Source of the DNA: Candidatus Poriferihabitaceae bacterium
GTDB lineage: Bacteria > Pseudomonadota > Gammaproteobacteria > Arenicellales > Poriferihabitantaceae
Direction: 5' to 3'
Assembly (NCBI GenBank): GCA_965237995.1
Contig: CBDEGO010000004.1
Span: 451,780-515,779 of the forward strand
Length of the DNA: 64,000 nt
Shown here in pieces: positions 2,194-4,987 of the stretch. Within the stretch, counting starts at the first letter, position 1. Each line of letters starts with the position of its first letter. Both the position numbers and the translations under genes were made by a program. The notes beneath the pieces were generated by a model that saw only the letters and a list, made by a program, of their open reading frames with translations, did not search any database and was not told the DNA's origin.

Positions 2194-2236
2194 TTGCTTT
2201 AAAGTGCAGTAAAAATTTGCGTGATTTGTGCTGAGT

Positions 2237-2266
2237 TTGACTTTTTCAATTAGGCAGCAGGATACT
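2237..2266 (+). promoter_or_regulatory. Candidate sigma70-type promoter inside the cassette 4 leader
   Basis: TTGACT (2237-2242), an 18-nt spacer, then GATACT (2261-2266). The segment aligns with the modules at 3040-3068 and 3790-3819. Confidence 0.4.
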
Positions 2267-2392
2267 CGTTAGAGACACTCAAGCGAACGAGAATACAGCC
2301 AATACCACACTCTATAAACCAATACACCTAGTTACTTGCAAATGTATTGCAAGCGTGTCTTGTAGGTAAAAATGAAGCCTAGCTAATATTAG

Positions 2393-2935
2393 ATGGATAG
2401 ATCTAACGCTAACCAGCACGAAGGGATCGTGCGTCAAATAAGAAAACTTGTCCTAGCTTGGGACTCAATGGTTCAAGTTACAGAACTGTTGATGCATATA
2501 GAAAAAAGTGACCTCAACATAGACGACAATTTGTATTCCCCAATGATTTCTGGAGCCGTAACTTCTTATGCTCGTAATTTTGTTAGTTCAGATGGATTAG
2601 GCCCACTCAGCACTTCCTATAAAGATTTTAAAGGAAAAGACGAGTTAGACTCGATACACCAACTAGTAATGACGGCTCGACAAAAAATTTATGGTCATAG
2701 AGATGCTACATATAAGCACCAAGGCTTGGAAAACATCTATGAAATTAAAGTTCGAATACAAAACAATGAACTTGAATTGAAACCCATTCTTGTGGATCTA
2801 TGGCCGGGTCAGATAAATAAATTCAGATTACTTGTTGAGTATCAGAAAGGTAGACTTGAGGAAGAAATTGTAGAAAAAATAGAACGACTCAACATAGTTG
2901 ACCGAGATACTAATAACGAATGGTATACGCTTTGA
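2393..2935 (+). CDS. Hypothetical protein (cassette 4, orphan)
   Basis: A 180-aa ORF with an ATG start and no TM segments. I recognise no motif. The call rests on its length and its position between two attC-like repeats. Confidence 0.5.
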   Translation: MDRSNANQHEGIVRQIRKLVLAWDSMVQVTELLMHIEKSDLNIDDNLYSPMISGAVTSYARNFVSSDGLGPLSTSYKDFKGKDELDSIHQLVMTARQKIYGHRDATYKHQGLENIYEIKVRIQNNELELKPILVDLWPGQINKFRLLVEYQKGRLEEEIVEKIERLNIVDRDTNNEWYTL

Positions 2936-2951
2936 AAGTATCAATAACACA

Positions 2952-3039
2952 CTGAACTGGGACTTGCCACACTGTGTTCTGCAAGCTCCTTGGCTCATTC
3001 GTTAACTGGCTGTTCTGGGCAACTAAGCGCCTGTTGAAC
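2952..3039 (+). repeat. attC-like repeat 5
   Basis: CTGAAC at 2952-2957. ACTTGCC (2962-2968) pairs with GGGCAACT (3017-3024) at 6 of 7 positions. A 9-nt spacer precedes GTTGAAC at 3033-3039, a perfect GTTRRRY. Confidence 0.55.
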
Positions 3040-3068
3040 TTGACTTTAGTAGTAGGCAAAAACATACT
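3040..3068 (+). promoter_or_regulatory. Candidate sigma70-type promoter at the 5' edge of cassette 5
   Basis: TTGACT (3040-3045), a 17-nt spacer, then CATACT (3063-3068). It starts 1 nt after the GTTGAAC core. Confidence 0.45.
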
Positions 3069-3186
3069 CCTCGCAACCATCCACCCATTTTTTCTATCAC
3101 ACGTCGCAATCTAAGTAATAAGCCATTCAAGTCTAGTTTGCTACTAATGATCTGACGGAATTCATGGCTACAAGGTAAATCAAGCT

Positions 3187-3765
3187 ATGCCAAATCTCAT
3201 CATAATTTTTGGACCTCCCGCCTCAGGTAAAGCCGCTGTCGGACATGAATTGGCAGCGTTGACAGGATACAAATTCTTTCATAACCATCTTACTGCCGAC
3301 CCTGCTGCTGCGTTATTTGGCTGGGGGACCGATCAATTTGGGGAAATGACTAACGCTATTCGTGACCTTCTATTTCGAGAAGTTGTTTCTGATAACTCTA
3401 TACTAGGCGTGGTTTTTACAATTGTCTGGGGACTTGATTTACCAGACGACACCAATTGGTTGAAAAACCTATCATCAATGTTTATCAAATCAGGCGGCCA
3501 AGTGTTCTTTGTTGAACTACAAGCTAGTCTACCAACACGAATCGCGCGCGAAGGGACACCATTTCGGGTCACCTTGAAGCCTTATTTACGAGACGTAGAT
3601 GCAGCTCGGTTACGCCAAGTTACTATGGACGAGAACTACAAGATGAACACTGATGGCACCCTTCCCTTTAAATACCCTCATCTTTTAATCAATACAGAGG
3701 AAACAGTGCCAAAGGATGCCGCATTAATTATTGAGAACAACTTCTCACTTTTGAGTAACAACTAG
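3187..3765 (+). CDS. P-loop NTPase, small-molecule/nucleotide kinase-like (cassette 5)
   Basis: 192 aa with an N-terminal Walker A, IIIFGPPASGKAAVG. The single-domain size is typical of AAA_33/CPT-like kinases. Confidence 0.6.
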   Translation: MPNLIIIFGPPASGKAAVGHELAALTGYKFFHNHLTADPAAALFGWGTDQFGEMTNAIRDLLFREVVSDNSILGVVFTIVWGLDLPDDTNWLKNLSSMFIKSGGQVFFVELQASLPTRIAREGTPFRVTLKPYLRDVDAARLRQVTMDENYKMNTDGTLPFKYPHLLINTEETVPKDAALIIENNFSLLSNN

Positions 3766-3789
3766 GGGAAGCCTCAGCACCTGTTGAAC
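3735..3789 (+). repeat. attC-like repeat 6 (overlaps the ORF 3' end)
   Basis: GAACAAC at 3735-3741 lies inside the end of the preceding ORF. CAACTAG spans its stop codon. GTTGAAC is at 3783-3789. The 21 nt CCTGTTGAACTTGACTTTAG are identical to repeat 5. Confidence 0.45.
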
Positions 3790-3819
3790 TTGACTTTAGC
3801 AACGAGCAAGAAACATACT
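3790..3819 (+). promoter_or_regulatory. Candidate sigma70-type promoter at the 5' edge of cassette 6
   Basis: TTGACT (3790-3795), an 18-nt spacer, then CATACT (3814-3819). About 37 of 42 nt are identical to the 3031-3070 segment. Confidence 0.45.
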
Positions 3820-3852
3820 CAATTCGGTTAGCCACAAAGAAGTAATTAGAGA

Positions 3853-4320
3853 ATGTCGGAGTATGTTGCCCAAGTAAGTTGGAGTCGCGGAAGCGAAGAA
3901 TTGTTTATAGACAGCAAATATAGTCGAGGCCATGAATGGAAATTTGATGGCGGAATATCTGTACCCGCTTCTGCCTCTCCGCACGTAGTGCCATTGCCTT
4001 ATTCAGTTGAAAAAAATGTAGACCCCGAAGAAGCATTTGTTGCATCTCTATCGAGTTGCCATATGTTGGGCTTTCTTGCTATTGCCGCAAAGAGGCGATA
4101 TATCATTGACGAATATATAGACCATGCCGTTGGCGTAATGGAAGAAGATCAAGATGGAAGCATCTCAATAACCAAGGTGACACTTAAACCTAAAATTGTG
4201 TTTACAGGGGAACGGCAACCTTCGAAAGAAATGTTGGAAAAGATGCATCACCAATCTCATCAGCATTGCTTTATTGCCAACTCAGTTAAGACTGAAGTCA
4301 TCACTGAGATTGTTAATTAG
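3853..4320 (+). CDS. OsmC/Ohr family peroxiredoxin-like protein (cassette 6)
   Basis: 155 aa. The two conserved Cys contexts, LSSCHM and HQHCFIANS, are typical of the OsmC family. Confidence 0.75.
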   Translation: MSEYVAQVSWSRGSEELFIDSKYSRGHEWKFDGGISVPASASPHVVPLPYSVEKNVDPEEAFVASLSSCHMLGFLAIAAKRRYIIDEYIDHAVGVMEEDQDGSISITKVTLKPKIVFTGERQPSKEMLEKMHHQSHQHCFIANSVKTEVITEIVN

Positions 4321-4848: not shown

Positions 4849-4886
4849 ACTATGCGCCAATTATTAAATCAAAATAATCTTAGGGC

Positions 4887-4922
4887 TTCAACCCGACAAA
4901 CGGGCAACATCAGGCAATAGCT
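4887..4922 (+). repeat. attC-like repeat 8 (terminal, degenerate)
   Basis: TTCAAC at 4887-4892. CCCG/CGGG form a small stem. GGGCAAC is at 4902-4908, followed by a 7-nt spacer and AATAGCT at 4916-4922, where repeat 2 has GTTAGCT. Confidence 0.35.
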
Positions 4923-4987
4923 TACTAAACAACATTCAGACTAGATTTCAATTTGTAAGATCAAACCTCGGCTTTTACAACAAAATG

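Follow-up and report, generated by a model that had tools for sequence, protein, structure and literature searches.

On the plus strand of a 64,000-nt window from a Candidatus Poriferihabitaceae bacterium (C4:451780-515779 of the 3.32-Mb, 44% GC genome G000, whose contigs are abbreviated C2, C3, C4 and C5), we found a short modular intergenic repeat in which TTGACT, a 17-nt spacer (18 nt in some copies) and C/GATACT form a putative sigma70-type promoter. The reading we favour, with slightly better than even confidence, is that this block is a portable promoter module and that, in cassette-like arrays devoid of attC (the recombination site of integron cassettes), it equips accessory genes with individual promoters. 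About 17 clusters of the genome have the repeat in the spacers between small, co-oriented and functionally unrelated accessory genes; in the mechanism we propose, every such gene would have a transcription start to itself in place of dependence on one upstream promoter. The repeat family, its anatomy, orientation and breakpoints, and its lack of attC-type folding are observations, whereas we infer that the module fires as a promoter and that it has spread through reuse rather than through common descent of whole regions.

An earlier note on this DNA had pointed to three TTGACT-N17/18-[C/G]ATACT blocks in the window. All of the quoted strings were found, at most one base away from the positions given, and CATACT is indeed present at 712-717 and 1442-1447. 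The strong similarity of 3031-3070 to 3779-3820 also held, although a hand count gave 35 of 41 aligned bases rather than about 37 of 42. The first type A copy (3040-3068; -35 TTGACT at 3040-3045, 17-nt spacer, -10 CATACT at 3063-3068) lies upstream of a gene for a 192-aa P-loop kinase-like protein (3187-3765), and the second (3790-3819; TTGACT at 3790-3795, 18-nt spacer, CATACT at 3814-3819) lies 33 nt upstream of an OsmC-like gene (3853-4320). The third copy, of type B/C, occupies 2237-2266 (TTGACT at 2237-2242, 18-nt spacer, GATACT at 2261-2266). The block begins directly after a GTTRRRY-like core, as had been claimed; this core reads GTTGAAC at 3033-3039 and 3783-3789. The copy at 2237-2266, a type B copy, is separated from its upstream core by a 43-nt extra segment (2194-2236), an arrangement also seen at C5:51195 and in two related genomes (G003, a congener, and G010, from another genus).

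Iterated nhmmer, seeded with 2991-3080 and run on the genome to convergence, returned 37 copies, which are spread over four contigs and lie on both strands; with a sequence-only covariance model the number was 39. The block is a real, reused, promoter-like module. Its copies are grouped in about 17 places; the cluster of the window (C4:446281-455552) and C2:178-189 kb hold six each, and C5:41-44 kb holds four. The consensus reads (TTGA)ATGGCYG-AAAA-GGGCAAC-TAAGCGCCC-GTTGAGC-TTGACT-TTGGCAACCGTCAAAAA-CATACT-C-RTTWGAGACRG-YCATTC, in which we distinguish three segments: the left part (ATGGCYG-AAAA-GGGCAAC-TAAGCGCCC); the promoter module, running from the GTTGAGC/GTTGACT core to CATACTC; and a loosely kept right part, RTTWGAGACRG-YCATTC. 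Within the genome, matches that are 81-88% identical over 47-63 nt stand before proteins of unrelated Pfam families. The right-part motif GTCATTCAA on its own was not enriched genome-wide (39 occurrences vs 33 in the control).

We read the module as a promoter on comparative grounds, because its hexamers and their spacing are kept while the spacer diverges, because its orientation and its distance to the next gene fit, and because the pattern persists in other genomes. Information content reaches its maximum on CTTGACTTT and CAAAAACATACT, followed by GGGCAA, and is low in the spacer; the hexamers and the 17 ± 1 nt between them are thus kept more than the spacer itself. The exact pattern TTGACT-N17-[CG]ATACT occurs 19 times in the genome vs 3 times in the reversed control, and the N18 form 5 times vs none, while spacings of 13-15 and 19-22 nt give 0-1 occurrences each. 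Type B, CG-TTGACT-TTTCAATCTGGCAGTAG-GATACT, retains both hexamers and the 17-nt spacing, and by hand count only about 8 of the 17 spacer bases are common to types A and B. The gene context is in line with these features. A co-oriented open reading frame (ORF) follows 33 of the 37 copies and precedes 34, and the distance from the -10 hexamer to the first downstream ORF start, 7-171 nt, is that of a 5' untranslated region. The downstream genes are unrelated to one another (RidA, YCII, GST, GFA, GNAT, glyoxalase, GrpB, LysE, MarC, Ddl and ADH), and the small, unrelated genes flanking the copies also include P-loop kinases, OsmC, D-Ala-D-Ala ligase and Zn-ADH, with several lacking a Pfam match. 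A regulon of one alternative sigma factor (RpoE-like GAACTT...TCAAA) was considered and rejected; TCAAA is not conserved and the spacing is 14 nt.

Several observations weigh against the promoter reading. A consensus scan of 5 kb gave 8 promoter-like matches at 9 of 12 positions, vs 11.4 expected from shuffled sequence, so that a single match of this quality is common; it is the recurrence, not any single promoter-like match, that exceeds chance. Some copies have weak hexamers, such as the -35 TTAGCT of type D, and at C4:258349 the -10 hexamer is broken by a 1-nt deletion. Positions outside the hexamers are conserved as well (TTT after the -35, an A-tract before the -10, and GGGCAAC), which a protein-binding or recombination role would fit equally well. 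The block may then be no promoter at all, but a binding or recombination site for an array-building protein, or an RNA-level element in a polycistronic transcript. The conservation beyond the hexamers and the modular breakpoints at GTT-type cores described below are compatible with this alternative, as is the strict co-orientation of the arrays, through which read-through could occur. However, no recombinase gene is adjacent to any cluster (searched with PF00589, PF01797 and TIGR02249), the repeat matches nothing in Rfam, no conserved structure was predicted, and neither conserved block is an inverted repeat of the other, whereas a pair of hexamers 17 nt apart is what a promoter predicts. We therefore hold a non-promoter role to be unlikely, if a good deal short of negligible.

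How the module relates to its neighbours was revealed by genes that occur in two contexts. C3:107948-108730 and C5:43162-43945 carry the same 785-nt gene unit, with 97.7% identity between them. The module upstream of it is of type B in C3 and of type A in C5, and identity sets in only after the -10, at ATACTC-G/TTAGAGAC (the slash marks the break; the junction can also be written ATACTC/GTTAGAGAC). Downstream, identity stops at GGGCAA/, and the sequence continues with a short form lacking the module in C3 and with a full module in C5. The type D module (677-718 of the window) recurs at C2:696755 and C3:78701, 98% and 95% identical to the window copy, with differing sequence upstream of GGGCAA and divergence immediately after CATACTC at all three loci. 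Two AAA33 kinase paralogues that are 83% identical have their sequence in common from ATTCG/TTGAR on, with a degenerate module before one and only a left part before the other. Finally, a 157-aa GNAT gene together with its flanking repeat parts (94-684) is duplicated at C3:672951-673541 with 99% identity in a different downstream context, with a left-hand break near /GGGCAAC and a right-hand break behind GAGAC.

These comparisons place the module between breakpoints, at GGGCAA/ or at the GTT core (CG/TTGAGC) on the left and directly after the -10 (CATACTC/) on the right. Since the left boundary of type B is the -35 hexamer itself (CG/TTGACT), its exchangeable piece would be essentially a minimal promoter. 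The module thus assorts independently of both neighbours and can be present, absent or swapped for another subtype between the same flanking genes.

The earlier note had instead taken the module to be fused to the 5' edge of the downstream cassette and thus to move with it. Part of the evidence is as this would predict: in at least five genomic copies the left part is missing and family similarity starts at the core (CCG/TTGAGC), with unrelated sequence upstream, and an orthologous gene of G010 and G000 (78% identity) has a module before it in both genomes. The second breakpoint right after the -10 stands against it, as do the different subtypes before the same gene at two loci, the single subtype before three unrelated downstream sequences, and the differing subtypes of the G010/G000 pair. 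A fusion to the 5' edge therefore seems to us very unlikely. Similarly, the question of whether the module travels with the attC or with the cassette found neither answer; at the compared loci it travels with neither neighbouring gene, because genes duplicated in two contexts break on both sides of the module.

Candidates can be named for what would move the proposed portable module. Several junctions read G/TT, consistent with an integrase using simple or secondary sites. Other junctions, such as CATACTC/GAAAC and CATACTC/AAAGC, do not, and the breaks at GGGCAA/ fit no single crossover point. An integrase acting at GTT cores as secondary or simple sites and homologous exchange between repeats are equally good candidates. 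It should be noted, as a further point against the favoured reading, that breakpoints at the edges of conserved blocks could be due in part to selection and not to movement. Real exchange is nevertheless what the 97.7% identical gene pair and the near-identical type D triple argue for. A bolder proposal is that a second, attC-less cassette system operates beside the normal integron, in which the left part, a minimal promoter reaching exactly from -35 to -10, and the gene units would be short double-stranded modules bounded by GTT cores, which either the integron integrase, using simple or secondary sites, or another recombinase would shuffle, so that each gene would be issued its own standard promoter. 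We regard this as quite improbable.

Given the cassette-like arrangement, we compared the repeat with the attC sites of the same genome. The genome has a single integron integrase gene, at C2:66557-67504 (TIGR02249, 426 bits), adjoined by textbook attC sites of the form YTAACAA...GGGAC...GCCCCTTAGCTCAACGTTA. This canonical family has 23 copies, some near intI and others in clusters of their own, for example C2:546-552 kb, and nhmmer never placed a canonical attC closer than 58 kb to a module copy. A sensitive pairwise comparison found one diverged canonical attC, at 2935-3007 in the window, 76% similar to the attC at C2:547994, with a pairwise score of 59 vs a shuffled maximum of 38. It follows a 180-aa ORF (2393-2935), and its R' box GTTAACT (3001-3007) borders directly on the left part of the following repeat. 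The same test upstream of the other 36 copies found no canonical attC, leaving 2935-3007 the only one in the module clusters and the sole family match; the repeat is a sequence family separate from the attC sites beside intI. As an observation in its own right, the 180-aa orphan ORF looks like a true integron cassette that has landed in a non-canonical array.

The remaining alternative is that the block is the interior, or variable loop, of a long, lineage-specific attC whose true crossover lies downstream. In its favour, the repeat is placed after each gene as an attC is in a cassette array, the gene content is cassette-like, and the genome has an intI; moreover, several copies have a GTT behind CATACTC, the exact point at which one duplicated gene starts. 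It is also known that the attC sites of an array can be nearly identical in sedentary integrons. An attC of this kind should fold, whereas RNAalifold predicted 0 pairs on the repeat, and as single-stranded DNA it gave a z of about -1 (range about -1 to +1) on either strand. Canonical attC sites of the same genome reached a best z of -5, with three others near shuffled sequence. The duplex between the left and right ends had an energy of -5.25 kcal/mol, vs -5.20 for shuffled and -5.68 for non-cognate ends (permutation p = 0.87), and a scan of the window spacers for R''/R' pairs found none with a folding interior. GTT-type cores (GTTGAAC/GTTGAGC) are present, with GGGCAAC 9 nt upstream, and the core pair spans only 23 nt. 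The supposed site is also broken internally, at GGGCAA/ and at the GTTGAGC core, and short forms without the block occur after the same gene. In a duplicated canonical cassette used as a control, identity begins sharply at G/TTATAAC. Window-type duplicated pairs break at CATACTCG/TT, at GGGCAA/ or in the vicinity of GAGAC/.

The repeat does not qualify as a normal attC, and it was not filed as one because it does not fold, its end complementarity equals that of shuffled sequence and no folding R''/R' pair was found in the window spacers. The claims of the earlier note that the repeats are attC sites, or that the block is the interior of a longer one, could accordingly not be sustained; the longer element shows no hairpin potential above shuffled sequence. 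The attC-interior explanation is the least probable of those considered here.

Three further candidates were set aside in this part of the analysis. An 85-nt attC-like hairpin, or one like a miniature inverted-repeat transposable element (MITE), from the ends TTGAATGGCYG ... CRGYCATTCAA was rejected, as its cognate duplex equals shuffled and non-cognate ones and RNAalifold predicts none. A short hairpin attC (GGCYGAAAAGGGC / GCCCGTTGAGC) was rejected because its 4 + 2 base pairs are too short for two integrase-binding boxes. A naive R''/R' scan of the window returned coding-region matches and one perfect 7-mer pair (2077-2157), not folding; the same scan was too noisy on the canonical array.

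Several side observations concern the canonical integron. The region C2:66557-77000 of G000 is a complete integron, with intI (a 336-aa frame) and a short canonical attC array. A portion of its attI-proximal region (C2:67703-68053) recurs at C2:76481-76832. The first canonical cassette, which encodes a GNAT protein, is duplicated (C3:852352-852913 vs C2:68050-68611); both flanks of the C3 copy carry an attI-like palindromic sequence, TAATGTTATCTAGGACARRGTCCTTGATAACGAACTGTTA, and its right boundary lies at the palindromic R'' GTTATAA/C, not at R'.

Further parts of the repeat were located in the window. The left part at 3004-3039 reads AACTGGCTGTTCTGGGCAAC-TAAGCGCCT-GTTGAAC (consensus ATGGCYGAAAAGGGCAAC-TAAGCGCCC-GTTGAGC) and holds both the GGGCAA/ breakpoint and the core at 3033-3039, and a degenerate left part at 3773-3789 overlaps the end of the kinase-like gene and ends with the core at 3783-3789. 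An exact-protein search with the product of this gene returned no record. The left part of the element termed repeat 4 lies at 2156-2193 (GACTGTCTCAAAAGGGCAACTAAGCGACC-GTTTGGC), and the right junction and right part that follow its module, at 2267-2285 (C-G/TTAGAGACACTCAAGC), share the RTTWGAGAC motif at which identity begins in the duplicated 785-nt unit. The left part AATGGCTGAAAAGGGCAA and the type D module AACTGAGACAGGTTAGCTAAAAACGACTGGCTCTGGCATACTC together occupy 655-718, with the weak TTAGCT as -35 and CATACTC ending at 718. A left part without promoter module, AATGGCCGTAAAGGGCAACTCACCGCCCGTTAGGG, is found at 91-127 before the duplicated GNAT gene, and a different promoter-like stretch, CG-TTGTCA-N18-TAATAT, precedes LysE at 1423-1452 and includes the CATACT at 1442-1447. 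A degenerate short-form copy, AGTGGCCGCATAGGGTAAAACTGGAACAGATCG, at 2115-2150 lies shortly before the repeat-4 element, the two standing in tandem without an intervening ORF; elements are likewise arranged in tandem at 655-735. At the end of the array, 4860-4985, a degenerate left-part-like sequence (AACGGGCAAC at about 4899-4908) stands before a convergent radical SAM gene.

The cluster of the window begins right after recQ and stops before this radical SAM gene. In the congener G003 these two genes are 4.5 kb apart and enclose other genes in mixed orientation and no repeats; the cluster is thus a lineage-specific accessory region. Two observations were made just upstream of the window. In G000, recQ (C4:443777-445574) consists of two overlapping ORFs (347 + 269 aa) where G003 has one 597-aa frame, which could reflect a frameshift or an ORF-calling artefact. 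A 715-nt dispersed repeat with 80-99% identity, found at C3:86007-86731 and in at least eight other places, may be similar to an insertion sequence or a MITE; a partial copy lies within the array at C4:447741-447890.

The distribution of the repeat across the family is patchy. The covariance model found it in 4 of 61 genomes, with 39 copies in G000, 11 in G010, and one each in G003 and G031. Its presence does not track the integrase, since intI was found in all five genomes tested, two of them congeners that lack the repeat. Scanning species genomes for the exact pattern gave mostly chance matches, plus three Arenicella metagenome-assembled genomes (MAGs) and one unclassified gammaproteobacterial MAG. 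The model matched three of these four MAGs significantly (E 3e-5 to 5e-12) and the remaining one, the third Arenicella MAG, only weakly and in part (E = 0.005); these matches suggest that the organism of the window is Arenicella-like. Two metagenome contigs carry five and two copies, the five on the 11-kb contig L097 sitting between co-oriented genes, and the plasmid collection gave no match to the repeat. The copies in the other genus, the MAGs and the metagenome contigs retain TTGACT/TTTACT and CATACT.

The expression of genes far from Pc, the integron's cassette promoter, is an open question in the biology of large cassette arrays, and gene-less promoter cassettes have been demonstrated experimentally only recently. 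If the favoured reading is correct, these arrays would offer a simple natural system in which to ask whether promoters spread as portable units, what moves them, and whether cassette-like arrays can form without a folded attC. If the module is inactive, the family would still represent a repeat not described before, one that marks hot spots of accessory genes in Arenicella-like bacteria.

Among known systems, attC sites are imperfect hairpins of 57-141 nt built from R''-L'' and L'-R' boxes, with RYYYAAC and GTTRRRY cores at their ends. The repeat resembles attC sites, and clusters of attC sites lacking integron integrases (CALIN), in its position after each small co-oriented gene, its GTTRRRY-like cores and the cassette-like gene content. 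It differs from them in having no bottom-strand hairpin or L boxes, in partner cores only 9 nt apart, and in being a family separate from the 23 canonical attC sites. Correia elements of Neisseria and enterobacterial repetitive intergenic consensus (ERIC) sequences are short intergenic repeats with terminal inverted repeats that can supply promoters; Correia elements produce a TA target duplication and occur in both orientations. The repeat is likewise short, intergenic and a possible source of promoters for its neighbours. Unlike these elements, its terminal complementarity is at the shuffled level, no target duplication is visible in its flanks, and its orientation follows the genes in 33-34 of 37 copies.

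Closer parallels are found in gene-less (ORF-less) promoter cassettes, reported from Vibrio superintegrons (Blanco et al. 2024, PMC11014356) and from Treponema and the oral metagenome (Tansirichaiya et al. 2019, PMC6557892). As in these cassettes, an ORF-less unit lies between cassette-type genes with a promoter, here a predicted one, on the sense strand, which would make distal genes independent of Pc. In contrast, gene-less cassettes are ordinary cassettes with their own attC and individual sequences, and their promoters could not be identified in silico (Blanco et al., PMC11014356), whereas here one 35-55-nt module recurs about 40 times without attC, far from intI and the canonical attC clusters. 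A gene-less cassette is a unit between crossovers with its own attC; the module has breakpoints on both sides and no attC. Putative mobile promoters are highly similar stretches (at least 50 nt long and at least 80% identical) upstream of non-homologous genes, some of them shared across genera, and most of their families are pairs (Matus-Garcia, Nijveen and van Passel 2012; PMC3575422). The module reaches the same identity and length and is also shared between genera, but it differs from the families of that survey in its roughly 40 members, its arrangement in arrays and the breakpoints mapped to either side of the -35 to -10 region. The general idea of cassette promoters, gene-less cassettes and promoter reuse is thus already established (PMC11014356, PMC6557892, PMC3575422); what differs here is one short module at about 40 copies, with breakpoints that frame the -35 to -10 region, in arrays without folded attC beside a normal integron.

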